Shown: positions 1,030 to 20,196 of the stretch, piece after piece
Position numbering within the stretch: the stretch's first letter is position 1
Layout: each line of letters opens with the position of its first letter
Source: Candidatus Bathyarchaeota archaeon
GTDB lineage: Archaea > Thermoproteota > Bathyarchaeia > Bathyarchaeales > Bathycorpusculaceae
Direction: 5' to 3'
DNA length: 64,000 nt
Assembly: GCA_963770935.1 (NCBI GenBank)
Contig: CAVYRJ010000001.1
Span: 183,393 to 247,392 of the forward strand
The notes under the pieces: generated by a model
Database searches by the model: none
Told to the model about the DNA's origin: nothing
What the model saw: the letters and a program-made list of their open reading frames with translations, nothing else
Position numbers and translations under genes: made by a program

Positions 1030-1108
1030 TGGCGGGCCCGCTGGGATTTGAACCCAGGACCTCCGGCTCCGCAGGCCGGTGTCATAATCCGTACTAGACG
1101 ACGAGCCC
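1030..1108 (-). tRNA. tRNA-Arg(GCG), CCA encoded
   Basis: Reverse complement GGGCTCGTCGTCTAGTACGGATTATGACACCGGC-CTGCGGA-GCCGGAGGTCCTGGGTTCAAATCCCAGCGGGCCCGCCA folds as a cloverleaf; anticodon GCG. Confidence 0.95.
1088..1108 (+). repeat. att repeat (left), equals tRNA nt 1-21
   Basis: TCCGTACTAGACGACGAGCCC, identical to 19984-20004. Confidence 0.93.
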
Positions 1109-1803
1109 CCAGCACTGGATTATGCTACAAATACGAAACAGAGATAATAAAAACGTTGCTTACGATGCGGAGCAACGGATTGAAAGAAGGCACACTTAGA
1201 GCAGTCAACTATCAGCTAAAATACTTAGACAGAAATGCAGACCTAAAGAACCGTGATGAAGTGAAAGTGTTTATAGCATCGATGAAGCAAGCAAACAGCT
1301 ACAAGCAATGTGTGGTTAAAGCATACAATTATTTTGCAGACACAAATGGAATTAATCGCATAGAAACTCATTTCAAATACCAAAGAAAAATTCCATTGAT
1401 ACCTTCTAGCGAGAATGTAAATAAAATAATTTCAGCATCAAGCAAAAAATACGAAACCATATTTAGAATATTAGACGAAACCGGTTTAGAAGAACAAGAA
1501 CTAAGAAACGTCACACGAAACGACATAGACACCGAAAAAGGGATAATAAACGCTCAAGGATGCAAAAACCACAAATCACGCTCATTCAAACTAAAACCAG
1601 AAACTGCAGAAATGCTAAGACCTTACCTGTTCAAGTATTCAGATTTTCGACCATTTCCAGAAACGCACTACATGAGCGAAATATGGGCGAGAACAAGAAA
1701 CAAGTTAGCAGATAAACTGCAACAACCAGAACTCAAGAAAATACCGCTGAGAAATCTTAGACACAAATTCGCAACACTTACCTACGATAAAACTAAAGAT
1801 TAG
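1109..1803 (+). pseudogene. Tyrosine recombinase/integrase, C-terminally truncated
   Basis: ILDETGL, KNHKSR and LRNLRHKFAT motifs; stops at YDKTKD* before the LGH...Y catalytic region. True start is uncertain because the ORF-track start 997 runs through the tRNA antisense. Confidence 0.85.
1144..1160 (-). promoter_or_regulatory. Candidate BRE/TATA for tRNA-Arg embedded antisense in the integrase 5' region
   Basis: Minus strand AGCAACGTTTTTATTAT at -52..-36 from the tRNA 5' end; 14/17 identical to the block at the same offset beyond the right att (20040-20056); the tRNA-Glu TATA-like box sits at a similar distance (about -47). Confidence 0.5.
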
Positions 1804-2936
1804 CCTACAGTATCAAACCAGGAGAAGAAGGACGTATAGTATGGATTCAAAATCGAACATCTATGTTTGACGTAGCACAGGGACCACAAATATACAAAGA
1901 CGGAATCTATTGGAAAGGCGACCAAGCAACATTAAAATGGTCATACTACGATGCTACAACAGGCAATTACTTGGGTGATACTGAACCAATCGATAATGGC
2001 TTAGCCATCTATTCAATGTCAGGACGATCCGTTCTAGCCTACAACAACCTCTACAGCACAGGCTACGACGGGTATGTACGTGCGTGGAATCAAACAGGAG
2101 ACAACATATGGCAATGGTACGCTGGAAGCGCTGGATACGATACACCATATGGTTCATGGCCACTGCAGGGATCATACACTGGCCCAAAGGCAGCTGATGG
2201 AAAGATTTTCGTTGCAAACGGCGAACACACCCCAATGAACGAGTTATGACGAGGCGGCAGACTTTACGCAATAAATGCAACAACAGGAGAAGAAGTCTGG
2301 AGCATATCAGGAACACAGGCTGAAGCTTCTCCAATGGGAGTAGCTTGGGGCACTCTAGTTTACCTCAACGGATACGATGGAAAAGTGTATTGTTTTGGAA
2401 AAGGACAAAGCAGCACTACAGTTTCAGCGCCTCAAACAGCCGTAACACTCGGGCAGCAAATAGTGATAACTGGAACAGTTATGGATCAATCGCCAAATCA
2501 AGAAAACACTCCAGCCATATCAGATGAGAGCATGAGTGCTTGGATGGAATACCTACACATTTAACAACCGATTCCCACTAATGCCACAGGAGTTGAAGTA
2601 ACACTAGATGTGATCGATTCCAACGGAAACTTCAGAAACATTGGAAAAGTTACATCCGACATTACAGGTTCTTATGGCTATACATGGCAGCCTGATATTG
2701 CGGGGCAGTATCAGCTCATCGCTACGTTCGCTGGATCAGAATCTTACGGTAGTTCGCGTGCACAGACCTATTTCTCTGCAGTCGATGTCCCGCAGGCGAC
2801 ACCTACTTCTCAGCCAGTGCAAGTTGATATGGCTACTCAAGCTGACCTAATGCTCTATGTCGGCGCTTCTACAATCGCTATAGTTTTAGCAATAGCTGTG
2901 ACCGGAATGCTAATGATCAGAAAAAGAACTAATTAG
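1800..2936 (+). pseudogene. C-terminal half of secreted PQQ-like beta-propeller protein with TM anchor; 5' deleted, two in-frame stops
   Basis: ORFs 1863, 2334 and 2610 are one frame, broken by TGA (2247; W in the intact paralog) and TAA (2562; Q in paralogs); motifs YCFGKG, PAISDESMSAWMEY, DSNGNFRNIG and FAGSESY are shared with 26895-29489. Confidence 0.9.
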
Positions 2937-3221
2937 CAATTAACCGTTCCCTCCTTTTTTTATTTAAACTTACAACATATTCGATAGGCGTTGACATTTC
3001 CATTATCGCCAAATCGGGTATTTTGCTCAAGCACTTATTCACGAAAGTCCGATCAAAAGTAATCAATCGAATTTTCCTCCACACATGGGGCATTGTTTCT
3101 TTATTGTGTTTGAAGGTGTTGGAAGTTGGAAATTAATAATCCTGCTAAGTAAGAAGCGCCTAATTAGTGAATTAGAATAGGGCTTTTATAATCATTAAAT
3201 AAATTATATTGAGAACTGAAT

Positions 3222-3365
3222 TTGCCAATTTACTACACTTGCAGAAAATGCAGAAAAGACTATTCAAAAGAAGAATATTCGCATGACAAATTCTGCAAGG
3301 AATGCGGTTCATTCCTTCTGTTGTACATTCAAGAAAGAGCAGAAGCAAGCAGCAGTTCAAACTAA
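3222..3365 (+). CDS. Zn-ribbon (CRKC...CKECG), probably the frameshifted N-terminus of the downstream YprB-like gene
   Basis: TTG-initiated MPIYYTCRKCRKDYSKEEYSHDKFCKECGSFLL overlapping 3302 in another frame. Confidence 0.6.
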   Translation: MPIYYTCRKCRKDYSKEEYSHDKFCKECGSFLLLYIQERAEASSSSN

Positions 3366-4456
3366 CTCAAACTGCTCCTCCTGAAAGGTTTGCGCTACAA
3401 AGAGCGGCTGAAAGCCTTCGAAGTAGGGTAGGGCGCTCAAGAGATTATGAGGTAGTGCCTGATGCAGAAAAGGAGCAGTCAAAGGGACCTTCGTTTGAGA
3501 GTTGGATGTGGAACTCCGAATTTGATGAAGCATTAAAACTCAAAAGGGTTGTCATGAAAAAATACAAGGGCAAAGACTTGGAAGATGTCATTCCGGGTAA
3601 AGTGGTTTCAAACGAGCAGGGGGAATGCTATGCTGTTTCTGCTTCCTGCACTTCAAACTTCAAGAAAGCCACCTATGAAGATAGTAGACGGATAATAATT
3701 TCTGACCTCAAAGTTCTTTCTGGAATAGGACCTGTTCGAGAGTTGGCACTTCGGGAGCAGGGTTATAACACGATTGAAGACCTTTTGAATCATCCGATTT
3801 GGCAAGATGAAGCTCGCAAATTCATGAAAATCGTGGACAAGAAAGATGTTGATTTAACCCAGAGGTGGCTTTGGCAACGACTGCCTAAATCCCATCCTTT
3901 TCTTCACTATTTGGCTGGGTTTTGTCAGGATCAAGATTTTGCGATAATAGACATTGAGACTTTGGGGCTTTCTGAAAGACCCATAATTCTGTTGGGTATT
4001 GCTAAAATAGATGGAGATAGAATCTGCACAAGCCAGTTTCTTCTCAGGGATATTCCCGATGAGCCTGGAGCTATCTGGGCGCTCGTCTCACAACTTGAAC
4101 CTAAATCGTCACTGATAAGTTACAATGGTAGAAGCTTCGATATTCCATACATAAAACAGAGGCTTGCATACTACGGTTTAGATTCAGCTCTGGACAATAC
4201 CCATTTTGACCTCCTTCATTTCGCCAGAAGAGCACTGCGACCCAAGCTTTCGGATTGCAGGCTTGACACGGTTGAAAAATACATCGGCATAAGAAGAGAC
4301 ATCAACATTCCAGGCGCGTTAGTTCCCCAATTCTACGAAACCTACCTAAAAACCAAAAACGTCGGACCACTGGTTCCCATAGTTGAACACAACAAACAAG
4401 ACTTGCTAACACTCGGTAGCTTATTCTCCAAACTCTATGAGGAATGGAACCTTTGA
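3302..4456 (+). CDS. YprB/MrfB-like RNase H-fold (DEDD) exonuclease with HhH motif
   Basis: LSGIGP HhH; DIETLGL, SYNGRSFDIP, HFDLLH and HNKQDL motifs; overlaps the helicase start. Confidence 0.88.
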   Translation: MRFIPSVVHSRKSRSKQQFKLTQTAPPERFALQRAAESLRSRVGRSRDYEVVPDAEKEQSKGPSFESWMWNSEFDEALKLKRVVMKKYKGKDLEDVIPGKVVSNEQGECYAVSASCTSNFKKATYEDSRRIIISDLKVLSGIGPVRELALREQGYNTIEDLLNHPIWQDEARKFMKIVDKKDVDLTQRWLWQRLPKSHPFLHYLAGFCQDQDFAIIDIETLGLSERPIILLGIAKIDGDRICTSQFLLRDIPDEPGAIWALVSQLEPKSSLISYNGRSFDIPYIKQRLAYYGLDSALDNTHFDLLHFARRALRPKLSDCRLDTVEKYIGIRRDINIPGALVPQFYETYLKTKNVGPLVPIVEHNKQDLLTLGSLFSKLYEEWNL

Positions 4457-6705
4457 TCGACGACTTCATCAAGAACATTAAGCAGATGCAGTCCTACAAG
4501 AAACAAATCGTCCATGTCCAAAAAATTGCTGCTCAAAAAGCAAGCTTTGGCGAATTGGAAAAACCGCTCCCAGAAAACATCCATAACTGCCTACTTAATC
4601 GCGAAATCTCTTTCTACTCGCATCAAGCTGAGGCAATAAACAAAGCACGGCAAGGCAAGAACGTAGTCATAGTTACACCAACTGCATCAGGGAAAACCTT
4701 AGCCTTCAACATCCCAGTCCTTGAAGCTCTAACAGAAGACCCGAAAGCAACTGCACTATACCTCTACCCCACAAAAGCGCTAACAAACGACCAGCTAAAA
4801 GTGCTAAAAGAATTGGAGAAAGAAATAGGAATCAAAGTATCCCCAAACATCTACGACGGGGACACTCCGCAAAGTCAAAGAGCAAGCATCCGCGAAAACT
4901 CAAAAATCATTCTAACCAATCCTTATGGTCTGCATCAGTATTTGCCTTGGCATTATAAATGGCGGACTTTTCTGCAAAACCTAAAATTCATAGTAATAGA
5001 TGAAGCACACGTTTACCGAGGAGTCTTCGGCTCCAACGTAGCCATGCTCCTCAGACGGCTAATGAGAATATGCAGCTATTACCATGCAGAACCCCAAATC
5101 ATACTCTCATCAGCAACTATTGCCAATCCAGAGGAACATGCCAAGAAATTAACTGGAAAAGACTTTGAAATTATCTCCAAAGACGGTGCACCGAAAGGAA
5201 AAAAGACATTCATGTTTTGGAACCCACCATTCATCGATGACAACAATACAATTCGCCGATCCACCCACCAAGAAACCAAAGACCTCTTAACTCTTAGCAT
5301 TCTGAAAAACCTTCAAACTCTATGCTTCACCACATCAAGGCAAATGGCTGAACTCATAACAAGATGGACCAAAGAAGAACTTAGAAAGAGGTCACCAAAA
5401 CTTCAAAACGCAATTACTGCATATAGGGCAGGCTATCTCCCACAAGAGAGAAGACAAATTGAAAACCGACTAAAATACAAAGAATTAATCGGAGTTGTCT
5501 CAACCAATGCTCTTGAACTTGGAATCGACATAGGCTCCTTGGATTCAGTGATAATCTCTGGCTATCCAGGAACAGTCATATCCACTTGGCAACAAGCTGG
5601 ACGTGCAGGCAGAACCGAAGCAGATTCACTGGTTACTCTTGTTGCTTTTCAAAACCCACTTGACCAATACTTCATGAAACATCCAGAAGACTTCTTCGGA
5701 CGACCGCATGAACAAGCTATAATCGATCTGCATAACCAGTACATCTCTCTTGGGCACATAATGTGCGCTGCCAGCGAACTCCCAATAACTGAAGATGACA
5801 AAAGATTCTTCCCAGAACTCTTTTCAGAAAGCATCCAAGCATTGGAAGAGCAGCATCTTGTCAGAAAAACACCCAGAGGATATGTCTACTCAGGAACCGC
5901 AAGACCCGTTGAAGTTGTCAGCCTTGAGAGCATATCCGACAAAACTGTAACTGTCCTTGCCAATGGTAGCGTACTTGAAACGTTAACGCTAAACAAGGCC
6001 TATGAAGAAGTGCATGCGGGCGCAGTTTTGCTGCATCAGGGAGAAACCTTCATTTCCGAAGAACTCAACCTCGAAGATTTAACAGCAAAGGTCAGGCAGG
6101 AAGACGTTAACTACTACACAGAAGCACTGAAAACAGTCGATGTAGCCATAAAGAAGACCTTCGAAGAAAAACAAGACAAGGTCAAGATCGGTCTGGGAGA
6201 ATTAACCATAACCGAAAACTACCACCAATATATCACAAAAACCTACGATGAAATAATCAAGCGACAACCACTCGATTTGCCCCCGTTAACGTTCACAACG
6301 GTCGGCATGTGGTTCTTGATTCCAGACAAACTCAGAGAAGAACTCGACGCCCAAAACCTCGATTTCGACGGCGGACTTCATGCGGTTGAACATGCGATGA
6401 TAGCTATGTCGCCGATATTTGCCATGTGCGACAGATGGGACATAGGCGGATTATCAACGCCCCTTCACCCAGACACCGGAGAACCAACAATCTTTATCTA
6501 TGATGGGTTTGAAGGAGGAATCGGAATATCAGAGAACCTCTACTCAAACATTAAACCACTCTGGGAAAAGACTTTGAAATTGATTGAAAATTGCGAATGC
6601 AAAGACGGATGCCCCTCATGCATTTACTCACCAAAATGCGGCAACGAAAACGAACCACTAGATAAAAAAGCTGCAACTATCATCCTAAGACACTTAACAA
6701 GCTGA
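4444..6705 (+). CDS. YprA/MrfA-like SF2 DEAH helicase with C-terminal DUF1998 (MZB) Zn domain
   Basis: PTASGKT, DEAH, SAT, LELGIDIG, QQAGRAGR and CECKDGCPSCIYSPKC motifs. Confidence 0.95.
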   Translation: MEPLIDDFIKNIKQMQSYKKQIVHVQKIAAQKASFGELEKPLPENIHNCLLNREISFYSHQAEAINKARQGKNVVIVTPTASGKTLAFNIPVLEALTEDPKATALYLYPTKALTNDQLKVLKELEKEIGIKVSPNIYDGDTPQSQRASIRENSKIILTNPYGLHQYLPWHYKWRTFLQNLKFIVIDEAHVYRGVFGSNVAMLLRRLMRICSYYHAEPQIILSSATIANPEEHAKKLTGKDFEIISKDGAPKGKKTFMFWNPPFIDDNNTIRRSTHQETKDLLTLSILKNLQTLCFTTSRQMAELITRWTKEELRKRSPKLQNAITAYRAGYLPQERRQIENRLKYKELIGVVSTNALELGIDIGSLDSVIISGYPGTVISTWQQAGRAGRTEADSLVTLVAFQNPLDQYFMKHPEDFFGRPHEQAIIDLHNQYISLGHIMCAASELPITEDDKRFFPELFSESIQALEEQHLVRKTPRGYVYSGTARPVEVVSLESISDKTVTVLANGSVLETLTLNKAYEEVHAGAVLLHQGETFISEELNLEDLTAKVRQEDVNYYTEALKTVDVAIKKTFEEKQDKVKIGLGELTITENYHQYITKTYDEIIKRQPLDLPPLTFTTVGMWFLIPDKLREELDAQNLDFDGGLHAVEHAMIAMSPIFAMCDRWDIGGLSTPLHPDTGEPTIFIYDGFEGGIGISENLYSNIKPLWEKTLKLIENCECKDGCPSCIYSPKCGNENEPLDKKAATIILRHLTS

Positions 6706-6936
6706 CTTTCATTTACGCTAAAGCAACAAAAAAGAGGGCTATCTCAACCTGAAACGATTTTTCCACTTAGCATAAGAGGTGTCAAAGAGGTTTTTCCAGG
6801 GTTTGCGTTGAGTGATTTTGCAGTTCTGCAGGGTTCGTCTGTTTTGCCTTTGGCATCGTTGTTGTGTGTGAAAGCGCAGCTTCCTCCTCAACTCGGCGGA
6901 TTGCAGAGCAGTATTATTTTTATCGATTGGGGATAA
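6706..6936 (+). pseudogene. N-terminal remnant of an inactive RadA/Rad51-like paralog
   Basis: Frame reads ...IRGVKEVFPGFALSDFAVLQGSSVLPLASLLCVKAQLPPQLGGLQSSIIFIDWG*, resembling Rad51 LCVxxQLPxxxGG..xxxID with a degenerate Walker A. Confidence 0.65.
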
Positions 6937-7086
6937 AATAAAATCTCGAATTTAAAGTCGCTTTTGGGCGAGCCTTCCAGAAGCATTATTGCTTCACTTT
7001 TAACGCTCTTCTACTGTAATTCAAAATCTCTGACTAGTTCATTAGTTCGTCTTACTTAATACAATCCCCGAAGCGGAAGAACAGAT

Positions 7087-7410
7087 ATGAGCACAGCTGA
7101 CACTGAGAAAGACTCTGGGAAAGAGGTTTGTTGTGAATATGCTACAGCTGTGACTGGTTTAGGCGAATTTGAATTATGTATTCGCGAGTGCGGCAATCAA
7201 ACTTGTCCTCAATCTATTTTTTCTAATCCGGCAATCTACGAAAGATGCCCACAGCGGTTGAAGTACAAAAAAGACGGCTTGATTTTGAATCAAAGTGAAC
7301 CGAAAAAGGTTTTTGTTCACGTTCACTCAAAACAAGAGTCTGTACCGAAATTCACCGGTATGAACTGCAACGGCTGCCAATACAAGGCTGGTTCTTATTG
7401 TTGGGGCTAA
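7087..7410 (+). CDS. Small Cys-rich hypothetical protein
   Basis: 107-aa ORF with several Cys clusters. Confidence 0.5.
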   Translation: MSTADTEKDSGKEVCCEYATAVTGLGEFELCIRECGNQTCPQSIFSNPAIYERCPQRLKYKKDGLILNQSEPKKVFVHVHSKQESVPKFTGMNCNGCQYKAGSYCWG

Positions 7411-7455
7411 TGCACAATGAACATTTGGAAAAGAAAACCTGATTGGTGAGGGTTA

Positions 7456-7670
7456 ATGAGTAAGGAAAAAAGCGTATCTTTGCAGTGGATGATGTGAATA
7501 TTTTGAGAATTTTTAGGAGTATTTTGAAAAAGAAGGATACGTAATTGATACGGTTGAGACCGGTAAAGATGCCCTTAAGAAAATCGAAAGGAGAAGTTCA
7601 ACGTGTGCTTAGTTGACGTTAGGCTCCCTGACATGGAAGGAACTGAGCTTCTCCTCGATATGGCAGAGTT
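7456..7670 (+). pseudogene. CheY-like response-regulator receiver domain remnant
   Basis: GGTGAGG RBS + ATG; pieces IFAVDD, EGYVIDTVETGKDALKKI and CLVDVRLPDMEGTELL across several frameshifts. Confidence 0.8.
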
Positions 7671-8184
7671 CTTTTACTTCGGCAATCCAACAAGTATGCG
7701 GCACAAAGCCTAAAGACGAATCAACCATAAAACTCACATGGCTATTTCTCTAATGACTTTAAGAAGCAAGGCGTTGAAACGACTAACACCCGTAATTGAG
7801 AGATAGTTAAAAGTGGAAGGCTGAGGAGCTGACGTTTCTTAGAAATACGTGTTAGCTAACAAGATGACTAATCTAAAAGAAAGCACCATAACGAACAATT
7901 TGAGTTATTGCTCAAATCCTACATGCCTCAATGGGAACAAAGCAAACAAGAACTCAACAACGGCATTCTTAGTTATTCTGAATGGGCAGAGTAGACTTAG
8001 ACTCTTGCTCCACAATGGGGACACTTATCTGCCGTCTCTTTGTAAATATTCTTGCAGTAGGCTCAGCTATTTTTAGTTAAATATTGGCAGTTATTAAATA
8101 AAGCAAAACTCAAAATTACACGTTTCGGGCACTCAATGTAAGACAAATTAAGAACCAAGTGCTATATTATTTAGGTGAATATTT

Positions 8185-8337
8185 TTGCGTAAACAACACA
8201 GACCAGAAGGATCGACAACCTCCTCTCCAAACAGGAGCAGTATAGCAAGAAAAGCAAATGCCGCCAATAGTTCGAGACAGAAGCAAGCCAACGATAATCG
8301 TTCGAGACAGACTCAAGCCGATAATTCAAAGAAGTAA
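8185..8337 (+). CDS. 50-aa polar low-complexity microprotein with an internal 10-aa repeat
   Basis: AGGTGA RBS, TTG start; NSSRQKQAND/NRSRQTQADN encoded by a 30-bp imperfect tandem repeat at 8266-8325. Confidence 0.4.
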   Translation: MRKQHRPEGSTTSSPNRSSIARKANAANSSRQKQANDNRSRQTQADNSKK

Positions 8338-8577
8338 AACAGTATTTTATACTTCTAAATTAAATTTTAATGCGTGGATTGAATATACTGTAATGAAACG
8401 GTTATGCGTTTTCGGCTTAGGCTGTCTACGGTTACTTCAATTCATTTTTTGTGATAGGAAGACTTAAAAAAGCAAGTCAACATAAAACTAAAGGAGAGAA
8501 AGTTTTTGGAAAAAACAGCGACGATTTATTCACTCTTGACTTTTTCGGCGTAGCTTTTTTGATTTTGGTGAAAACAT

Positions 8578-8754
8578 ATGAAAGATTTTAAGTGCCCAAT
8601 ATGTAGTGGGTCAACTGAAAAGATTTGGGAAAATGCAACCAGAACAAGATACGGAATGAGATGTACGAAAGGCCACAATAAAACAGGTGGCAAATCAGAG
8701 GGTTCAAAAGAGTACCCCACATTTCTTGTTCCAAGTGAAGAACTTGGTAAGTAA
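8578..8754 (+). CDS. 58-aa Zn-finger microprotein (CPIC...CxxGH)
   Basis: GGTGA RBS; MKDFKCPICSGS...MRCTKGH; below the ORF-track cutoff. Confidence 0.6.
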   Translation: MKDFKCPICSGSTEKIWENATRTRYGMRCTKGHNKTGGKSEGSKEYPTFLVPSEELGK

Positions 8755-8861
8755 AGAAACTTAGATTCTTTCTTTTTTGTTATGGGTACTAAAATTTAAT
8801 TTGAACCACACCTAAAACTTTTTGAAGGCTAAAGTTGTTTATTTGACAAGGATAAATCTTG

Positions 8862-9026
8862 ATGGATAAAGCTAAAATTAAAGATGAAATGTGCACGTGT
8901 GGGCATCTGAAAAGTGAGCATTCGTATTTTTTAGATAGAGTATGTACTAAACCTAAATGTGAATGTTACAAGTTCGTTTTGAAGGACGAAGAACAAAAGC
9001 CTAATTTTTTAGATTCTGTGTGCTAA
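8862..9026 (+). CDS. 54-aa Zn-finger microprotein (CxCGHxxxxH...CxxxxCxCxxF)
   Basis: MDKAKIKDEMCTCGHLKSEHSYFLDRVCTKPKCECYKF... Confidence 0.6.
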   Translation: MDKAKIKDEMCTCGHLKSEHSYFLDRVCTKPKCECYKFVLKDEEQKPNFLDSVC

Positions 9027-9085
9027 AGCATGAAGATAGATAAACTAATAATCGCTTTGAATGATACTGCTAAGAGGTTCAATAA

Positions 9086-9442
9086 ATGGTAAAAATCAAT
9101 CTGTTGACCTATTTGACTTTCAATTTGAACATGCTCGTTGACAAAGGAAAAGGTATGACGATAAAAGAGACCAGGCAGTTATGCGAAAAAAGAACAATAC
9201 TTCGAGAGTTGCAAGAGCGATTTCCTTTTGCAGAAACACACCTTGACTTATCATTACTGAAACTGCAGCCAGATGCTGAAGAAGAAATTGAGAATATTTT
9301 TTACGATATGGCTACTTCATTAAAAGACAGCGAAATGCTTGTGGGAAACAACGGTTTATGTCTGTTGATTGCATACGCTCAAGAACAGATTCAAAGAGAA
9401 GCAAGAAAACTTGAAGAGAAAAGAGACGACGAAAAAGTCTGA
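9086..9442 (+). CDS. Hypothetical protein (true start probably internal)
   Basis: ORF with natural composition, no recognised motif. Confidence 0.45.
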   Translation: MVKINLLTYLTFNLNMLVDKGKGMTIKETRQLCEKRTILRELQERFPFAETHLDLSLLKLQPDAEEEIENIFYDMATSLKDSEMLVGNNGLCLLIAYAQEQIQREARKLEEKRDDEKV

Positions 9443-9491
9443 TAGCCTAAATCTTTTTCTTCTATAAATCCTATCTTTGGACGATACTAAA

Positions 9492-9626
9492 ATGAACCAA
9501 AAATGCCCCCGATGCGGAACCACAACAACACAAGGCTTGATTTATGATAAGGTACACAAGAACTTACTATGCCAAAAATGCGTGAAAAAACAAAACCCAA
9601 ATTTTAAGGTGCCCCCTCGCAGGTAA
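9492..9626 (+). CDS. 44-aa CPxCG-type Zn-finger microprotein
   Basis: MNQKCPRCGTTTTQGLIYDKVHKNLLCQKCVKK... Confidence 0.6.
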   Translation: MNQKCPRCGTTTTQGLIYDKVHKNLLCQKCVKKQNPNFKVPPRR

Positions 9627-9718
9627 CGTTTGCCGGGTGTTTGTCTGGAGTCAAGAGAGAACTTATTAGCTCACTCACAGAGATAGTGGTTACAACCTCA
9701 ATTGAAAGAGGCTTGTCT

Positions 9719-9844
9719 ATGGCTAAACAAATGGGTTTGAACATGAAAGAAACAAAGAACGGCAACGGTGCTAATCTTGGTTTTGAGGCGAAACTCTGGA
9801 CAGCAGCCGATAAAATGCGCAATAATATGGATGCTCCAGAATGA
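9719..9844 (+). pseudogene. hsdM: N-terminal remnant of type I R-M methyltransferase (HsdM)
   Basis: NGANLGFEAKLWTAADKMRNNMDAPE* is a typical HsdM N-terminus, truncated just before the usual YK. Confidence 0.8.
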
Positions 9845-11271: not shown

Positions 11272-11399
11272 GTAAGAAAGGAGAAACAGGTGAGCAGGAT
11301 CGGGGAAAGCCTCAGCCTCGAAAAAAGAAGGACAGGGAAGATGCTCGCAAGAAGAAGAAACTCGACAGAGTTGAAAGACAAAAATCAAGATTGGCTTAA
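11268..11399 (+). CDS. 43-aa highly basic microprotein coupled to tfb
   Basis: ATGA overlap with the tfb stop; MSKKGETGEQDRGKPQPRKKKDREDARKKKKLDRVERQKSRLA. Confidence 0.5.
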   Translation: MSKKGETGEQDRGKPQPRKKKDREDARKKKKLDRVERQKSRLA

Positions 11400-11539
11400 A
11401 TAAATTTAGAGTTAGACATGGAGATTTATTATTGTCTGACGCTGCTCTGTCATTTCTTCGGTTGATTGACTGTTTGTGTGTGGCTAATACTTTTCGGGGT
11501 GTGATGATTAAACTAAAAACATATGATATATTTAGAAAC

Positions 11540-12022
11540 CTATGTAGGTTCAATCCACGATATATCATGTCCACCTTGCAAGTAATTATGTCTCCAAACA
11601 ATTTCTGCAATAGTAAAACTCCAGGTACAATGTCCCTCGGCATCCAAATGATGTATTAGTTGTATAGAAGTTTCATCGATTTTTACAACAGGCATTATGT
11701 GCCAACCCTGACCATTACCCAGAGCTAACGAAATCAGGCAAGGTTTTTGCTCTTCTAAGAGAGATTTGATACGGTTCACTTTGTCTATTCCCTTGGTAAA
11801 ACTCTGTACTTTAATATTGATTTTAGGATACACACTTCTAATCTTCTCTGAAACAGAGTCAAAACCATTATCTTGCCCCAAGTCAAAATCCTCTTGAAAG
11901 GTCTCAAGATGCACTCCTTGAATCTTCAAATATCGAATTAGCCACTCATAGCCTGTTGGAATACAGCCAGATTCATGACGTTGAGGAACCACAGTTTTGG
12001 ACCAGTTTGATAATTGTGCCAT
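11540..12022 (-). CDS. Papain-like (C39-type) peptidase domain protein
   Basis: Q-x4-GC (PQRHESGC), GWHIMPVV and a downstream Asp fit a Cys-His-Asp triad. Confidence 0.6.
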   Translation of the reverse strand: MAQLSNWSKTVVPQRHESGCIPTGYEWLIRYLKIQGVHLETFQEDFDLGQDNGFDSVSEKIRSVYPKINIKVQSFTKGIDKVNRIKSLLEEQKPCLISLALGNGQGWHIMPVVKIDETSIQLIHHLDAEGHCTWSFTIAEIVWRHNYLQGGHDISWIEPT

Positions 12023-12215
12023 TTGTTATCAGAACGGTATAGGAAGTAATAGCAACTTAAGACTTTTTACTATCGTTCTGAATCAGATTTTTCCATTTGT
12101 TTTTTCCTTCTATCGTTATTTCACATGAGTCACGAGGGGTTTTCCATCCTGAGATTGAAGTTAAATTATTGAAAGTTATGAATCCGAGGTCTTGGAACGA
12201 ACTGCATGGAAACGG

Positions 12216-13250
12216 TTATTCGTTTTCTGCTGAGGCTGCCCCTAGGTCATTATTTATTCTTGTGTTGCCCTTTCCTTTGCTGGCATGTCCAAATCGTGTT
12301 ATTTTCCAGTTATTCATGTTTCCGCGTATAATCTGAGGGTTGCTGGTTAAGATGTAGAAGGGAACTTTGGTTTGGGAAGTGTAGAGTTCAGCTATGAAGT
12401 TGAGGAGTCGTTTGCCTACGCCGATTCCTTGATAATCAGGTAGCACGACTAATCGGCTGACTCGATAGTATTTTGCTTTCATTCTCACGCAGGCAACAGC
12501 TATGAATGCCACAGGTTTCTCTTGATAGACTGCAGTATAGCATCTGACTCCTGCACCGAGGGAGCCGTTTAGATAGTGATATTGCCGAAACATCTTCCAA
12601 AGGTTAGCGCCGCACCGATAGACTTTGGAGTTCAACGGGCGGCCGACTTCTTTTTTTCGGTCTAAACTCCATTGTGTCTGTGCAGAAGACCCAGTCTGGA
12701 TCCAGCCAATCCACAACATCATAGTGGCAGGTTACAGCAATGAATTTCTTGGAGACTTCTACGAACTGCTTTGCTGATGGCAAAGGCGCTGACTTTGGCA
12801 ATCTCCCTATCCACGACAGAGGTAAACTCATCGAAAACCACTAAAGGCTTATCTAAGCATAGCGCACGGGCGATGTCAACCCGCATCTTCTCTCCTTGGC
12901 TCAAACAATCATACGCTTTCAGCCAGTCCGGCGGAGAAGCGAAGCCGACACTACAGAGCATTTTTGTAATCGCATTCGTTTCAAGTTCTTGGGGAAAGTC
13001 ATCTAAGACGCATTTGCTTTTGTATTCAAAACCACGTATGTAAGCTTCTGGAAAAAGTTGTTTGGCTATGCTTGTTTTGCCTGAGCCGCTTCGCCCAACT
13101 ATTACGCCTATTTGCCAATCAAAATCCTCCAGAGGCAAAGAGCCTTTAAAACGCTTCTCCAATTTGACATCTGAAAGGGTATAGCTGCCGACCACGCTCT
13201 GTGATCTAAAACTATCAGATTCTTCCCATCGCTTTACAATGTCAAAATCC
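12216..13250 (-). pseudogene. ABC-type ATPase-GNAT acetyltransferase fusion, two frameshifts, start lost
   Basis: GRSGSGKT, LSQGEKMR, VFDEFTSVVDR; then AVTCHYDVVDWLDPDW; then SRLVVLPDYQGIGVG, in three frames. Confidence 0.85.
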
Positions 13251-13254
13251 GTAG

Positions 13255-13791
13255 CTTATATCCCCCTCCAATCTTAGCTTCTCATACTTGGCTTTCTGAT
13301 CGGCTTCGTCTCTGCACTCTACAATTATCTCGTAGGTTCCAGGAATCGAAAAAGAGATGTCACGGTCATCCACCTCGATCGGGAGCCTTCTCACCTACGG
13401 ATTCGAGGAGCGCCTTCAAATCTTCCTTTTCGCCTAGCTCAACTATGCGCAAGTATTCGGCACTGTCCAGCTCTTTGTTGTGTTTTCCTCTTAGCTTGTT
13501 TAGCACCTGCCTTAGCAATCGGCGGTCAACGTCTTTAATGGGCAAGCGGATGACGCTGCACTCGGTCATGCCAAGCTCTTTCATAGCGGTAACACGCTGC
13601 TGTCCATCTGCCACCAAAAGCTCACTGTTAGTGACGACGGGAACGATGTCTCCCCATCTTCTAATTGAAGCTTTCAATCGGTCAAGTTGCGCAAGGCTCA
13701 TTCTGTTGGGATTGTCTTGGTCAAACTTGAGGTCGCTGATTTTCACGCGTTCCGACATAGGAATCGGAATTTCTTTTTCAAGATCACTCAT
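13255..13791 (-). pseudogene. ParB/Srx N-terminal-domain protein, frameshifted near the C-terminus
   Basis: GGAGG RBS before ATG 13791; NPNRM...LKASIRRWGDIVPVV...ADGQQR; continues in another frame as YEIIVECRDEADQKAKYEKL. Confidence 0.78.
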
Positions 13792-14784
13792 TCCGCTTTT
13801 TCTCCTCCATTTTCTTGTTTTAAACCCATTAATGAGCGCCTCCCGCTCCTCCGGATGCGCTTCATAGTACTCCTTAATTTTACGTGAAATAAACTCGTCA
13901 TGGAACCCTTCAAAAATCTCAAAACTCTTCTCAGTAAATACTCCTTCAGGATAGATTGCTTTTATTTTGGCGTCTACTGCGTCCCACCAGGCATAATCAT
14001 CAAACGCGGGGTCATCCTCGTTTCGGTTATTGTTGTATTCATAATCTTCTATCAGGCAATCGTGGTTGAATTTCTGCATCTCATGGAAGAACCACAGAAC
14101 CCTGAGCATAACTCGTGGGTCTTCGCCTTTGGGGTATGCGGCAGCGAACCATTTATAGACTATTCGTTCTAAGCGGTAGCTTAAAAATTCGTGTGATTGT
14201 TCAAGAATGGCGTTTTCCTGGTCTGTTAGTTGGCTTAGAAGCTGTTTGGCTGCCTCGTTTTGCTGTTCCGGACTTGTTGCCGCTGTTTATTATGGCTTGT
14301 GCGTCGTCTTTGAAAGTTGCTCTTATTTTTTGTGCGTGGTCATGCAGGAGTTGTTCGTCTAAGTCGCCTATATGGAGCATTATGTCGTCGTCTTCTGGGG
14401 GAAAGTCTAAAATGTTGTCCTCTAATTGGTGGAGTTTACGGCTTAACACATTCATCAGAAACCCTCTCCTATCCCTTTCCGTTTTTGTTTTTTCGCCATC
14501 AGGTTGCGGTTTGGGAATCAGTATGCTGTTTTTTAGCTTCTCCTCTAAGGCTATCACTCTGAACTCTAACTCCTCGTCTTTGAGTAGGCTGCCGTAGGTT
14601 GAGACGGCTGAAACCATAACCCTTGCCCAGCCTTGTTTTGCTTTGTCGCTGTTTCCAGCGCATGAATTTTTTTGTGGGAGAGGCTTAAAACGCCGTCTAA
14701 AACGCGAAACAACGTATTTCTGCGGTCTTTAGCTGAACGGTTTGATGACGGTTTCTTATCGGTTTTAGCTTCAACTTCACCCAA
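13792..14784 (-). pseudogene. Two or more frameshifted element-specific hypothetical genes
   Basis: Overlapping minus ORFs 14566-14784, 14201-14617 and the N-part of 13366-14109, co-oriented with the ParB module. Confidence 0.45.
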
Positions 14785-14965
14785 GCTTTATTTGCCTTCC
14801 TAAGTTTGGCTCCAACACCAATGGAGAAAAGACACCGCAAAGCGAGTTAGCTCTCAAGACAACACAAAACAAGACAACGATTTCCATATTGTTAATTTGA
14901 AGATAAAAGACTTGCGTTTAAGATCCAAGAGATAATTTTATAGAGTAAGATCAGCTAAAGAGGTA

Positions 14966-15751
14966 TTGGACTGCAGTGTGGAAGATAGAACCTTATCTTT
15001 ATTATGCAACTCGTGTGGTACTTTGATTCAAAAAGATTATTGGGAGTGCCCTCATTGCAAAGCTCACTATTGCTATGGTTGCGGAAAGGACTTTCAGGTT
15101 CTCCTAAGAAATCTCATCCCCTGCTGTCCTGCATGTAACTTAGAATTATTTCACCAAACAACCGCTGAACCCTACAAAATAGCAGAATCCCCATCTTCTA
15201 TGCCACTGTTAAAAAACAAAAGTTCTACGGTATCAATTGCAGAGACCAAGGTCGAAACAGTACTGCAACTGGGTATTAGAAAAGAATCAAAAAAGCATGC
15301 CGAGGCTGAGATAGAAGTTCAGTTCTACCGTCCAATCCCTGATACTCAAAAAGTTCTTAATTACCTTAAAACGGCTAAGATAAGAAATATCAGGAATAAA
15401 CAACATCTATTTCAAACGCTATCAAATATCTTTAAAAAAGACCCAGAGCGCATAGAAGAACTGTGGTATGAACTAGAAAGAACTAATCCGATTTTAATCC
15501 GCCTAATTATCTCAAAATTTAAGGATGAAGTTCTAAAGCAGCAATATAAAAGAGCTAACTATGAGGCTCTTCATCCTAAGCATAGGAATGCCTTGAATGA
15601 TTCTGAAGTCATCTCTCCGCCGCACAGAGAAGAAGTCAACTTGGATTTAAAGAATGTAAAACCGATAGATGGCGTCGAAATTGAATGGAAACAAGGGAAG
15701 ATGTCAGCTGTCGATCAAAAGAACTACAGAAGCAAATTTGATGAACAATAA
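14966..15751 (+). CDS. Hypothetical protein with N-terminal multi-Cys Zn finger
   Basis: CNSC, CPHC, CYGC and CPAC motifs. Confidence 0.65.
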   Translation: MDCSVEDRTLSLLCNSCGTLIQKDYWECPHCKAHYCYGCGKDFQVLLRNLIPCCPACNLELFHQTTAEPYKIAESPSSMPLLKNKSSTVSIAETKVETVLQLGIRKESKKHAEAEIEVQFYRPIPDTQKVLNYLKTAKIRNIRNKQHLFQTLSNIFKKDPERIEELWYELERTNPILIRLIISKFKDEVLKQQYKRANYEALHPKHRNALNDSEVISPPHREEVNLDLKNVKPIDGVEIEWKQGKMSAVDQKNYRSKFDEQ

Positions 15752-16022
15752 AACTCTTATGTGTTTTTCGTCTGTAAGTTCTATATGCCTTTTACACTCA
15801 ATGCAGTTGATTAGTTTCAACAATATCTCTTGAATTAGATGAACCCTCAACGAAATCCATTAAGCACGAAAAGTTTAATCTATTTAGCAACAAACTGTCG
15901 CGCGATTCTTTTTCTTGGACACAATTTGGTATCAGGGCGTTCTTCTTTTGCCAATACACTATAATCTTCTCGATTGGAGCAAAAAAGGGGAAGTGAAGTG
16001 CTATGAGGTTTTTGTTAATGGA

Positions 16023-18639
16023 TTATGGTCGTTTTCGGAGCATCAGAATTATTACTATTCCGATTACTAAGATTGCGATTATCGCTGCTGCGCCCAAGCC
16101 TAAAACGTATGAGTCGGTCATTGATTCCGGTGCTGATGTTGGTGCGGGAGTGGACGAAGGAGCTTCTTCTACGTATATGGCGGTTTCCGCATTGGAAGAC
16201 CAGTAAGACTTAGAACCAGCAAAAGTAGCAATGATAGTGTATTTGCCTGGAACCTCCGGAGTAAAGGCATAGCTGTATGTGCCACTTGCGTCACTAGTAG
16301 TGTTGCCAACCTCGTAGTAATTGTTGTTCGGGTCAAGCACACTTAAAACAACCTCAACTCCTTTCACGTCAGTGGGTTTCGACTGTTGCATGTAAACATA
16401 CTCCATCCACGCACTCATATCTACGTCAGATACAGCAGGAACTCCATTTGGAAAACGTAGGTCTTGTTCAAGTTGCGTCGTGCCAGGAGAAATATCAGTT
16501 ACTCTGCCTTCAATCAGTACTTTGTTGCCATGCGTTGACACCTTGGGAGATGCTGTTACGATAGTGGCGCTTGGTCCCTTGCCGAATGAATATATCTGCG
16601 CGTCAAAGAAGTTGAGTCCTAAGATGAAGCCGTCTGCGATAACTGCGGTAGTCGATGTGAGATGCCCTCCGCCAACTCCGGCTCCGTAGAATAATGTTTT
16701 AAATATTTCCTTTCCTGTTTCCGCGTCTATGCAACGAAGGTTTTGACCGCGAAATAGAGGTTGCGTTGGTGAGTGTTCACCAGTAACTGTGTATATTTTT
16801 CCGTCTGCAACGCAGAATGCGTAGATTGGATAGTCGCCGTAAGGAGATTCATAGCCAACGCCTGTTGCGGTGTAATTCCACAAGACTTCTCCGGTCTTTA
16901 TATCGTAGGCAAACATTACTCCGGAGTAGCCAAAGGTTAAGATTTTGCCTTGGTAGACATAGTTATAGATGCCATAGTATTGAAAATCGGGTTCAGGGTT
17001 AGTTGGACCCCACAGTCTATTACCCGTTTCTAAGTCGAAGCCCCAGAGTTCCTTCGTCAGTGAATTTGTATAGTAGAAAACACCATCTTCTGGTGCTACA
17101 AATGGCCCAAAAACCGCTCCTCTATACATCGATACGTAGGTTTCTATTGGTGCTACATCAAATGGTGGCGTAAAGGTATAGTTCCAAATCAATTGTCCCT
17201 CTTGCCCTGGTTTCAGGCTTAATTTCCACATGTTGCCTAAAACAAGCGGCTGACCTTCTTTGTTTACTCCTGAAGTTCCACCGATTATATACTCGTCCTC
17301 AAGAACCGCGCGGATGCTGCCCTGTACTGCCTTTGTTATCGTCACGTTCAATGAGAATGCCGTGTCCCCGTTATGAACAGGTAGCCTTTCGGGTCTCCAT
17401 TGCCATAAATCAGTTCCTCCTGTTCCTAATAGCATAGTAGGTATTGCAGATGAGTTCCAAACTTGTAAATATTGTATCCCACCTGATGTGACTAGGTTGT
17501 ATCGCAATATGCTTCCGTCTTTACCATAGACAGCTGTACCGCCAGCAGATACGTTAGCTATTAAGGTTACCGTGTTTCCTGTGAATCCGTCAAGCATTTC
17601 CCAAGTTTGAGTACCTGACCTGACTTGTATAACCAGATGGTAAGGTGACGCCGGAGGTTCTCCATAGGTATGAGAAGCCTCCGTGCTGGTTTGGTGACTC
17701 ATAGTTGTATATCGAACCAAATGCCGGCATGGTTTTGTTGTCTAAAGATAGCGTTTCGCCTGTGTAGAGATCAACGGCATAGTAGCCCTGTATTGTTTGT
17801 GCTGTGTTACGTGCTTCGTAGTAAAGTTTTCCTTGGATAATTATAGGGGTGAAACTAAGACCTGCGTAGTGCCCTGTCATGTAGCCTGTATCATTAAAAC
17901 GAGCGTCCATGATTCCTCCGGCAAAATATGGTTTTGTCCAAATTATGTGAGCGCTTTCTGGAGCTTGACCGAAGCTGAAACGAGTAGTTTGACCAGCCAG
18001 TGGAATAGCTCCAGTCCAAGTTTGAGCGGAGCCCCCCAGCCAGTTTCCTGTAATTTGCCACCAAGCTCTGTTGGCACTGTTTATTGGGCGAGTCCAGTAT
18101 TCGGTTGGAAGAGGTGTCTCTTTCCATCCTTCTATGGGGTCAGTTTGTACAGTAATTGTTGTTGGATCGCTTGTGCTGCCAACATAAGTATCGTTGATGT
18201 ATGCAACGCCAGGTTGGGTCACTATATAGGGGTTTAGAGGAAGACCTGTTATTGTGTCATTAACCATTCTTGCCACGAAAGTGTATGTGCCGACTTGATC
18301 AGGTACGTACGTGGTGTACCCAGCGCCCACTGGATCAGATGTGATAGGTCCGAGTGTTTGTGTTGTTTCGTCAGGTTTTGTAACATCTACATAGAAGGTG
18401 AACCTGTCACCGTAAGCGCCCCCAGCTGTGGGGGGAACGGTGTTACTAAACATGACAACCAATAGCTGCTGGCCGATGCCTACAGTGTGTGGACTAACAG
18501 CAATGTAAGTCCAGGTAGGAATCACCCACGGAGGACTATGAGCTGAAACTACCGGCAAATTAAGAAGTGGAAAAGCAATAGTCATAATCAGAAACAACGT
18601 AGTCATGAAGGCAATTGTTTTTTTCTTTGAAAATTTCAT
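16023..18639 (-). pseudogene. Secreted PQQ-like beta-propeller protein with C-terminal TM anchor; single +1 frameshift near 17620
   Basis: Signal peptide in 17590-18639, remainder in 16023-17720; removing one G in AGTCAGGTCAGGT restores SQSGTQTWEML; collinear with 26895-29489. Confidence 0.9.
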
Positions 18640-18663
18640 GTTTTTCTTTTCCTATAATTATAA

Positions 18664-18737
18664 TTGACAAAAGCAAGCTTTTGAGAGGTTGCCTTGCCAA
18701 CAGAAACAGATATTTTTGCTAGATGTATATTAAATTA
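18664..18737 (-). promoter_or_regulatory. Conserved promoter block plus 5' stem-loop of beta-propeller gene
   Basis: TAATTTAATATACATCTAGC then TTGGCAAGGCAA-CCTCTCAAAAGC-TTGCTTTTGTCAA; matches 26800-26872. Confidence 0.75.
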
Positions 18738-19122
18738 ACCATTCTTGAAAAGACGCCATGGGAAAATATGTAATTTTGATATTTAAATGGTTGTCATAGT
18801 GTGGAATATCGTGTAATGCTTAGGGTTTTGAGTTTTTTCTTTCGGTTGCCGTTAAATAAAATAAAAAAATAGAAAGGCGGGAGATTTTGCCACTTTAATC
18901 TTATAGAAGCCAAATAAGACTAATATGCGAGAAGACCAGGGCCTACTTTGTTCACATAAGAAGGCGGGTGTTGCTCACCAAAATTAACAATTTTTCATAG
19001 CAGTGTTCTAAAGGTAAGACTAAACGACCTTCAAAGGTTGAGACCCGCGGTGATAAACTTCATTAACCAAACCTGTTATTGATCCTGTGATCTGTCCTAG
19101 ACAATAAATCCGACGGGTAAAT

Positions 19123-19761
19123 TCAGTTAAACCGATAGTTTTCTAAAATCTTGGCAATCACATCTTCAATTCCTTTAGGAAAAGGGACTCCGTGTACTTT
19201 TTCATCACCCAAATAAACTAGGGAATGTTTCGGATTACCAGGAATCCACTCTTCGTATTTTGCTAACCATAAACTGAGATGGAGATCAAGTTTTTCTAGA
19301 TACATTTCCAGATCATCTTTTTCTTTTTGGTTCGTTTTTAATAAATTAACGTCGATTTTTTGAGCAAGTTTTTGAATCTTCTTGTTCAAAGGGAGAAGAG
19401 CTCCTTTTGTTTGGCTGCGAATTATCAAGTGTGTTTCTTTATGTCTCGGTTTCATTTTGTCATAAAGACTTTCAAATGTTTCTTCAAACCCGACAAATTT
19501 TCGGATTTCTTCAGGAAATTGATCTTTTAAATTCTTGGCAAGTTCGTCCCTATGCTCACATTGAAGATCGAAAACACGTTTTTGAACAGTAATAAGTCTG
19601 TGCAGAGATTTCAAATTTGAAATATTATCTGCGACAATCGCCTGGTTTACTTTTCTGCGCTCAATTAACTCTCTAACAAAATAAGCGACTGTTGCAAAAA
19701 CAGCACCAATTATTGCTGCACCCAGCCAATCTGGAAATTCTGTAAACAAAGACATTTCCAT
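19123..19761 (-). CDS. Hypothetical protein with N-terminal TM helix
   Basis: 212-aa ORF, hydrophobic N-terminal segment followed by a helical domain. Confidence 0.7.
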   Translation of the reverse strand: MEMSLFTEFPDWLGAAIIGAVFATVAYFVRELIERRKVNQAIVADNISNLKSLHRLITVQKRVFDLQCEHRDELAKNLKDQFPEEIRKFVGFEETFESLYDKMKPRHKETHLIIRSQTKGALLPLNKKIQKLAQKIDVNLLKTNQKEKDDLEMYLEKLDLHLSLWLAKYEEWIPGNPKHSLVYLGDEKVHGVPFPKGIEDVIAKILENYRFN

Positions 19762-19983
19762 AATCCATCCTGTCTCGATAATGAGACGAGAACTATCTCT
19801 TAGTATTCTACTGGGAATGAGATCTATTTAGAATTATTGATCCATTCACAGCTAAATGTAATTTTATAAAACATTTCGGGTGTGGAAAGAAGTTGAATGC
19901 GATTCGTTTATTTGACTATTTAAGGAAGCCTATAAGAAAAATAAAAAGGGAGGTTGCGGGTGATGTCTCCAGAAAATGATAGG

Positions 19984-20004
19984 TCCGTACTAGACGACGA
20001 GCCC
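19984..20004 (+). repeat. att repeat (right), 5' stub of tRNA-Arg
   Basis: Identical to 1088-1108. Confidence 0.93.
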
Positions 20005-20090
20005 AACGCTTGTTTATGCCCAGAAATTTAAAGGGCAGAATAGTAAATACTTTGCTTAAACTTAAAAATAGTGGTCTTGAAAGCAACTGT
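20005..20090 (+). pseudogene. Relic 5' end of a second integrase of the same family
   Basis: In the same register through att it reads RTRRRA-QRLFMPRNLKGR-IVNTLLKLKNSGLE, versus RTRRRA-PSTGLCYKYETE-IIKTLLTMRSNGLK for the left integrase. Confidence 0.7.
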
Positions 20091-20196
20091 TATTTAGGAA
20101 AAAGTCGATTTGAACTGGGTTCTTTAGGTGTTTAGCTCTCAAACATTATCGCAGCGCAATGCTCTATCATAAATGGGTGAAGAAAAATGCGCACTG

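Follow-up and report, generated by a model that had tools for sequence, protein, structure and literature searches.

A decayed integrative element in a Bathyarchaeia tRNA-Arg gene and a candidate tRNA promoter antisense to its integrase-coding sequence

The window, the whole 64,000-nucleotide stretch of Candidatus Bathyarchaeota DNA analysed here, contains a tRNA-Arg(GCG) gene at positions 1030–1108 of the reverse strand and, adjoining it, the decayed remains of an integrative element, some 18.9 kb long (1109–19983). The tRNA gene is intact (ARAGORN; Rfam RF00005, 59.2 bits at 1033–1108) and has no insert in its D-loop. It is the sole Arg-GCG gene that ARAGORN detects in this 91%-complete assembly, and it is identical at 79 of 79 positions to the copy in five same-genus relatives. 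A truncated tyrosine integrase gene points away from the tRNA on the forward strand (1117–1803; PF00589, E 6.6e-7, profile positions 6–138 of 172). This Int(C)-like piece, 228 codons of which align to its family, ends at a stop codon at 1801–1803, about 90 codons short of the full-length homologs, and has lost the region of the catalytic tyrosine. It is 85% identical to a full-length homolog of 317 residues. The divergent Phage_integrase open reading frame (ORF) abuts the tRNA, and the only DNA upstream of the tRNA is the antisense strand of the integrase 5' region, as the first-pass annotation of this DNA had stated.

The ends of the element are marked by a 21-nucleotide sequence, TCCGTACTAGACGACGAGCCC, which equals nucleotides 1–21 of the tRNA and occurs in two exact copies 18,896 bp apart. 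The left attachment-site (att) copy (1088–1108) lies within the intact tRNA, and the right one (19984–20004) is the displaced tRNA 5' stub, probably shortened. No further copies of the 21-mer were found at up to three mismatches. Beyond the right copy lies lysK, the gene of the host class I lysyl-tRNA synthetase (20197–21798, reverse strand), which is the neighbor of the tRNA in element-free relatives.

We searched 60 relatives for the tRNA-Arg gene and examined the best 30 loci, including that of the window itself. Upstream of the tRNA in the 29 loci from relatives, 14 carry the sequence found past the right repeat of the window, four share another common upstream type, nine have other upstream sequences, one (L102) has a full integrase, and one ends at a contig edge. 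The lysK gene adjoins the tRNA in 11 of the 29, and in one 3-kb locus (L113) the left flank, the tRNA, a fossil integrase fragment described below, and lysK are contiguous. The relatives thus display an empty site with the order tRNA, 190 nt, lysK, because of which we count 1109–19983 as an insertion. When the interior stretches 1109–3000 and 18000–19983 were searched for in the loci of relatives, the integrase end alone produced a match, and in L102 only. The tRNA is therefore separated by 18.9 kb from its former upstream DNA, in agreement with the first-pass annotation.

With a recombinase gene at one end, tRNA-derived flanking repeats that include an intact tRNA, and an empty site in relatives, the locus has the features of a tRNA-targeting tyrosine-recombinase element, and it is almost certainly an integrated element of the type that duplicates the tRNA's 5' half. 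One could argue instead that the 21-bp repeat arose by chance or by segmental duplication and that ordinary chromosome lies between its copies, since the GC content of the interior (0.35–0.46) resembles that of the flanks, the integrase is broken, and neither capsid nor conjugation genes were seen among the annotated ORFs of the element. Nevertheless, none of 100 shuffled sequences matches the 21-mer, nine related loci are arranged in this way and have longer stubs, the cargo is patchy across the genus, and L113 together with ten other lysK-adjacent loci displays the uninterrupted site, which refutes this explanation and makes it exceedingly improbable. The public DNA runs X1, X2, and X24 contain several metagenome contigs whose match covers the tRNA and ends precisely at 1108/1109, where they continue into other sequences, and one of these contigs resembles another integrase of the same family. 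Judged from such sequences, related populations evidently carry differing upstream DNA at tRNA-Arg.

The integrase of the window has 162 database relatives at E ≤ 1e-5, and those with an organism name are labeled Bathyarchaeota. We compared 15 genome loci and 80 metagenome loci, which together with the window make 96 sources. The pattern I-I-[NK]-T near the start of the integrase was found in 79 of them, and the script-based analysis covers these 79 only; among the 17 sources without a pattern match, four (L012, L013, L015, and L017) have the same layout by eye. A tRNA 5' end, of the Arg-GCG or Pro-GGG type, is positioned just upstream of the integrase and divergent from it in 78 of the 79 motif loci, and the two genes point away from each other in the window as well as at every locus examined. 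The distance from tRNA +1 to the first isoleucine codon is 17–35 nt in 63 of the 64 loci with a whole tRNA and 71 nt in the remaining one, and the fixed spacing predicted by the first-pass annotation is thus replaced by a range. The best PDB and NCBIfam matches of the integrase are XerA-like. Its score against the archaeal XerA model NF040815 is 93.4 bits, compared to a cut-off of 220, and the gene is linked to a mobile element and located next to a tRNA. By these matches, the protein is Xer-like but well under the XerA cut-off.

The head-to-head layout found throughout the family, together with 5'-stub repeats in nine genome loci and in the closest element (G026, with an 85% identical integrase), supports the proposed integration at the 5' side of the tRNA. 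The stubs at the far ends of these ten elements reach from nucleotide 1 into the anticodon stem or loop. Where no insert is present, they are 36–38 nt long (36 nt exact in L005, 38 nt in the G026 element). The integrase family probably duplicates the tRNA's 5' half and crosses over in the anticodon loop, as judged from the stub sequences. The first-pass annotation was correct that the repeat of the window equals tRNA nucleotides 1–21, but the crossover at the D-arm that it placed there is disfavored by the longer stubs of the relatives. In the window, the 21-bp identity is followed by CCT (tRNA sense), which matches tRNA nucleotides 34–36, and we therefore read the stub as probably shortened by a small deletion. 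A deletion of 12 bp fits the three bases past the identity, but one or more additional indels must be assumed when the stub is compared with that of the closest element.

Two further observations concern the element ends of related loci. In L005 (9978–9999), and also in L021–L023, about 20 nt directly between the intact tRNA-Pro and the integrase form an additional, degenerate copy of a tRNA 5' end. The copy fills the spacer, and the motif stays 32–35 nt from the real +1. Furthermore, the element ends in L005, L007, L008, L010, L012, L014, and L016 share the motif ..TAGGGCTTAGTA.. (and variants of it) just beyond the point where the stub diverges. By its position, this motif may be a core-binding site of the integrase on the element arm.

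A candidate BRE/TATA box (transcription factor B recognition element and TATA box) of the tRNA, AGCAACGTTTTTAT, is located at 1147–1160 on the reverse strand, at −52 to −39 relative to the tRNA, and is antisense to the integrase codons I-K-T-L-L. We trained a 14-nt BRE/TATA matrix with the consensus AGAAAAGTTTAAAT on the other 32 tRNA upstream regions of the genome, with the focal region excluded. The best match in the focal region is the candidate box itself, which reaches 11.8 bits with its last base at −39 and ties the top training site among the 33 tRNA upstream regions. The fraction of 5000 random 70-nt windows attaining this score is 0.0008. The training sites mostly end at −29 to −42, which makes −39 a typical distance, and the 70-nt upstream region contains no other matrix match. 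The center of an archaeal TATA box is usually found near −26/−27 from the transcription start. With this spacing, the pre-tRNA is expected to start about 15 nt upstream of 1108. The block is probably the working promoter of the tRNA, as its sequence and position suggest. Of 79 family loci, 77 have their best matrix match on this motif, with its last base at −24 to −39, implying leaders of about 0–15 nt, and 68 of the 79 score higher in the sense of the tRNA than in the opposite one.

The codons opposite the candidate promoter encode part of a helix. In the AlphaFold2 model of the 317-residue homolog P0001, the segment EPEIIKTLLTMKS forms helix α1 (residues 30–42), and the block of residues 31–40 has a mean predicted local distance difference test (pLDDT) score of 95. 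We analyzed codon usage in 56 family sequences below 95% identity, ranking each column among the scored columns of the alignment. The Asn, Thr, and Leu columns of the motif rank first, second, and fourth for atypical codon usage. Asparagine is encoded by AAT in 25 of 44 sequences (14% gene-wide), threonine by ACT in 34 of 56 (7% gene-wide), and leucine by TTG or TTA in 23 of 50 (18% gene-wide), and the two isoleucine columns of the motif use ATA in 74% and 89% of cases, compared to 55% gene-wide. ACT is the majority codon in four of seven sequence clusters at the motif threonine and in zero or one cluster at each of 13 other threonine columns. The asparagine seven codons further on is encoded by AAC in 33 of 36 sequences, so the bias is local. 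Across the EIIKTLLT codons, the window differs from locus L004 at third positions only, with the residues unchanged. The motif is thus translated, yet its codon choice is odd. The reduced synonymous variation predicted by the first-pass annotation is present as codon bias, but the synonymous sites are not frozen, as their third positions vary.

The DNA beyond the right repeat contains a second, older version of the same arrangement. The 17-mers at 1144–1160 and 20040–20056 are identical in 14 of 17 positions, and each starts 36 nt past the last base of its own repeat copy. The coordinates and the identity had been reported correctly by the first-pass annotation, but the right-hand 17-mer is not an isolated block. 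It belongs to the start of an integrase-like ORF (20016–20135, forward strand), the fossil 5' end of an older integrase gene, with an in-frame ATG followed by ..IVNTLLKLKNSGLES... We built a profile of the first 46 alignment columns of the family without the window copy and compared it with 78,393 six-frame fragments of the genome. The profile matched the window integrase (3.6e-18), a remnant on contig C16 (1.7e-7), and the ORF past the right repeat (2.8e-5), and the same fossil was detected in six same-genus relatives with E 1.4e-5 to 2.2e-4.

The fossil is conserved in a narrow part. A 34-nt block (20042–20075), which includes the BRE/TATA-like 14-mer of the fossil (20043–20056, reverse strand), has a mean pairwise identity of 92%, with 21 of 34 columns invariant, among 14 same-genus relatives and the window. 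In comparison, the identity is 50% in the spacer to the tRNA (1 of 41 columns invariant), 36% in the 40 columns upstream, and 95% in tRNA nucleotides 1–21, and the gene past the 34-nt block differs among the relatives. This conservation pattern suggests that an older element of the family decayed to about 12 codons, which were kept most simply as a tRNA promoter; a new element would later have inserted, moving the fossil 18.9 kb away from the tRNA. The dependence of the host on the element end, proposed by the first-pass annotation, is thereby made plausible, as relatives keep a fossil of about 34 nt conserved roughly as well as the tRNA. It accounts for the retention of about 12 codons and not for the surviving 228-codon piece of the integrase, which the same annotation had meant it to explain. 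In the spacer of the window (20005–20041, reverse strand) and the corresponding spacers of L100–L119, a short GC hairpin of the GCCC..GGGC type is predicted in 15 of 15 sequences despite their 50% identity. The hairpin could be located in the leader or around the transcription start.

Several observations weigh against a promoter in the integrase gene. The median score of the family is 7.1 bits with the matrix of this genome, and the 95th percentile of random windows is 7.6 bits, so that many family members would be inconspicuous if judged by this score only. The spacing varies, and the 17-nt offset in L050 would place the start inside the tRNA. Contigs from the one RNA run compared cover 1867–2000 only, leaving 1030–1800 without cover, and such contigs cannot show transcription starts. 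The codons for Ile-Ile-Asn/Lys contain only A and T in their first two positions, so that a TATA-like run follows from the protein. Within I-I-N-T-L, conservation is seen at codon positions one and two and variation at position three, and the isoleucine column 134 has 50 of 54 ATA codons without a promoter to explain it. The 34-nt fossil block is longer than a BRE/TATA box and contains two AT-rich boxes, and some other function may be conserved in it. Finally, lysK is co-oriented with and upstream of the tRNA in relatives, so that read-through from it could also feed the tRNA.

Several of these points would be accommodated if the AT-rich block were a by-product of the conserved Ile-Ile-Asn/Lys-Thr-Leu residues in a confidently folded first helix, with a coincidental likeness to a promoter and a tRNA transcribed weakly or from elsewhere. 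We regard this as unlikely. It does not lead one to expect that the focal site equals the top score among 33 tRNA upstream regions at a typical distance, with no second match in the 70 nt upstream, nor that the codon anomaly is confined to N-T-L and directed towards T and A while an asparagine seven codons further on is not affected. Moreover, relatives that have lost the integrase kept exactly this block at 92% identity between flanks of 36–50%. The proposal of the first-pass annotation that an integrase helix dual-codes a tRNA BRE/TATA box is thus favored by sequence, position, and the local codon anomaly at I-I-N/K-T-L, and is weakened by synonymous sites that vary, although with a bias.

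The position of the integrase start bears on what else the block might do. The integrase frame is open through the antisense strand of the tRNA 5' end in 78 of 78 loci, and in the window it extends back to 997. A canonical start codon is found between the tRNA and the motif in 13 of 79 loci, and the spacer from tRNA +1 to the motif has no codon periodicity and cannot locate the translation start. We reconstructed by script the excised junction of the two insert-free elements for which both ends are available (L005 and G026), and in both of these, two elements only, an in-frame ATG is located beyond att. By analogy, this suggests that attP, the attachment site of the free element, is inside the integrase ORF, and that integration severs the promoter and the first codons from the gene. 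A possible remnant of the original first codons of the window integrase, comprising an ATG and six codons leading into the stub and now out of frame, is present at 19963–19983 (forward strand), as proposed from the related elements. Gene callers assign to many family members N-termini of the type WDLNPGSPAPQAG..RRRP, which are translations of antisense tRNA and disordered in the structure model; in that of P0001, residues 1–25 have pLDDT below 50.

If attP is inside the ORF, a first-helix promoter could read antisense across the integrase start in the free element. The block could then serve the element itself, either as an accessory recombination site by attP or as a promoter of an antisense RNA over the integrase start, with tRNA expression as a side effect. 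Its position 17–35 nt from att in all but one whole-tRNA locus would suit such a role, and so would the integrase start beyond att in the two reconstructed excised forms, which would make the transcript antisense to the integrase 5' end. However, the fossil is conserved in genomes that have no integrase to regulate or to bind it, and the block fits the host's own tRNA promoter matrix. We therefore find a role confined to the element quite improbable; the antisense-RNA idea is in itself compatible with a function as tRNA promoter, and both could hold.

Taken as a whole, the following explanation, which combines the insertion, the geometry of the family, a promoter from the integrase antisense strand, and the fossil, appears likely to us. 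The insertion, the repeat, the family geometry, the promoter-like score with its position, the codon bias, and the homology and conservation of the fossil are observed, and a transcription start at this site is inferred from them. The window contains a decayed element, about 18.9 kb long (1109–19983), that integrated into the tRNA-Arg(GCG) gene of a Bathyarchaeia genome. Its Xer-like tyrosine recombinase would recombine in the anticodon loop, with the element carrying a copy of the tRNA 5' half. Integration would replace the tRNA's 5' half and all DNA upstream of it, while the former half and its promoter would be displaced, as a stub, to the opposite end of the element. The integrase gene diverges from the rebuilt tRNA, the sole BRE/TATA-like sequence of which is the antisense of the first-helix codons I-I-K/N-T-L-L. 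TATA-binding protein and transcription factor B (TFB) would bind there, and the pre-tRNA would start about 15 nt upstream of 1108. The sequence past the right repeat is what is left of an older integrase from this family, and element-free relatives would have kept it as a promoter.

Integration into the 5' half of a tRNA with displacement of its promoter is already published for pTN3/TKV4-type elements and for Caldiarchaeum, and the principle is known. In the pTN3/TKV4 type of Thermococcales (Krupovic & Bamford 2008 and Cossu et al. 2017, as summarized in the review PMC8371274 and in PMC5495485), the chromosomal target attB is likewise a tRNA's 5' half. Integration there restores a full tRNA and parts it from its original promoter, so that the element must drive it, and attP is within the integrase ORF, as our two reconstructions also suggest. 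PMC8371274 sets pTN3-like integrases apart from all other archaeal integrases by their use of the tRNA 5' half, with the rebuilt tRNA expressed from the integrase promoter. In that type, as the review describes it, the integrase has the same orientation as the tRNA and lends it its own promoter, whereas in the window the genes are divergent and the candidate promoter is antisense within a coding region. The family of the window also differs from pTN3 in that its best PDB and NCBIfam matches are XerA-like, and in that its hosts are mesophilic Bathyarchaeia from peat and sediment.

Krupovic et al. 2019 (PMC6563490) describe 5'-distal tRNA integration as rare and list cases, including a bacterial one. 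The tRNA-Thr(GGU) locus of Caldiarchaeum subterraneum (PMC3293823) and the element CalSub-E1 at a tRNA-Ser (PMC6563490) resemble the window in having a 5' tRNA fragment as a direct repeat and a recombinase beside the rebuilt tRNA. In Caldiarchaeum, the rebuilt gene has an insert, an intron, that the displaced fragment lacks, and the same pattern is present in L007, L010, L014, and L016; Sugahara et al. 2012 (PMC3293823) put forward the idea that the intron came in with an integrating element. That system differs from ours in that the recombinase is on the tRNA strand and the tRNA of the window has no insert; PMC3293823 treats a single locus and does not raise the promoter question. The SSV1-type ('suicidal') integrases of Sulfolobales are also reported to have the attachment site in the integrase ORF and the start of the gene split off on integration. 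SSV1, however, duplicates the 3' part of a tRNA-Arg and leaves the host promoter untouched, whereas in the family described here about ten codons plus the residues encoded by att would be split off. Full-text searches of a limited body of literature turned up no account of a tRNA promoter lying antisense inside an integrase ORF, and neither of the Bathyarchaeia papers PMC11697101 and PMC10848311 reports such a layout. Within this scope, the divergent layout, the antisense promoter in a conserved coding helix with its codon signature, the genus-wide fossil, and the size of the family appear to be new.

In most related loci, the integrase-side tRNA contains a 35–72-nt insert in the D-loop after about nucleotide 16. 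The displaced stub has no insert in L007 (9842–9983, 12276), L010 (9856–9989, 13671), L014 (9875–9992, 10839), and L016 (9983, 16113), and in L012 and L013 the two tRNA copies carry different inserts. From these sequences, it appears that the element brings the D-loop insert along. In minimum-free-energy folds, from which no bulge-helix-bulge motif could be established, the inserts form hairpins with z-scores of −2.1 to −4.5. Six of eight genomes checked have no close copy of that tRNA body besides the gene with the insert, and no tRNA-Pro(GGG) with an insert was found in the window's own genome.

The interior of the element contains several genes, some of them broken. Three ORF fragments of a surface-protein pseudogene with β-propeller and immunoglobulin-like (Ig-like) features and a hint of Big_3_5 (1863–2936, forward strand) abut the truncation point of the integrase. 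Their motifs recur, by eye, in an intact gene in inverted orientation (16023–17720, reverse strand), which belongs to a PQQ-like β-propeller/Ig-like membrane-anchored protein encoded by two overlapping ORFs (16023–18639, reverse strand). An RNase H-like exonuclease (3302–4456) and a DEAD-box helicase with an MrfA Zn-binding domain (4444–6705), both on the forward strand, form another part of the cargo. Of the 36 further genomes listed for the genus, 21 contain close orthologs (E = 0), not all of which are unbroken, and the helicase is patchy in its distribution over the genus and broken in some genomes. The element also carries a full gene for a TFB (TFIIB-like) paralog (10291–11271, forward strand; phrog_20431); the genome has five TFB matches, two of which are in tandem on contig C4. 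The combination of an element-borne TFB gene and a putative element-borne promoter is suggestive. A GNAT gene (12216–12722) and an ABC-type ATPase fragment (12719–13195), both on the reverse strand, overlap by 4 nt and match two halves of phrog_11143, and they may be one gene split by a frameshift. A ParB-like nuclease-domain protein is encoded at 13366–14109 (reverse strand).

Outside the element, the region beyond the 3' end of the tRNA (420–720) is of low complexity, with an A-rich run at about 478–600 opposite a T-rich run at about 660–715. It contains an imperfect inverted repeat with arms at 519–547 and 685–713, and has no noteworthy ORF and no Rfam match. Elsewhere in the genome (G000), decayed N-terminal remnants of integrases of the same or a related family are located on contigs C16 (about 3150–3567, reverse strand) and C15 (14264–14413, forward strand), neither of them beside a tRNA. 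On contig C10, an intact integrase of 30% identity is positioned tail-to-tail with a tRNA-Leu(CAG), with the 3' ends adjacent.

Integration into tRNA genes is usually deemed harmless, as it duplicates the 3' end and does not disturb the promoter. At this locus, the promoter of an essential tRNA present in a single copy appears to have been taken over by the element, which in relatives also supplies the entire 5' half and an insert. If the block is indeed the promoter, a protein helix and a BRE/TATA box share bases on opposite strands, which would be a clear case of such sharing. The fitness of the host would then be tied to the end of the element, which would explain persisting integrase stumps, and a fragment of a mobile element would have been domesticated as a core promoter across a genus. 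Many integrase N-termini of this family in databases (for example WDLNPGSPAPQAG) are translated antisense tRNA. The related loci provide several independent examples for the published idea of element-delivered archaeal tRNA introns and make it testable in a large and widespread family. More broadly, and with somewhat less than even confidence, we speculate that this integrase family shapes the tRNA genes of Bathyarchaeia: it would swap in a 5' half together with an antisense-helix promoter, often with a spliceable D-loop insert, and its decay would leave about 34 nt as the domesticated promoter of an essential tRNA-Arg, which in the free element may regulate the integrase in antisense.

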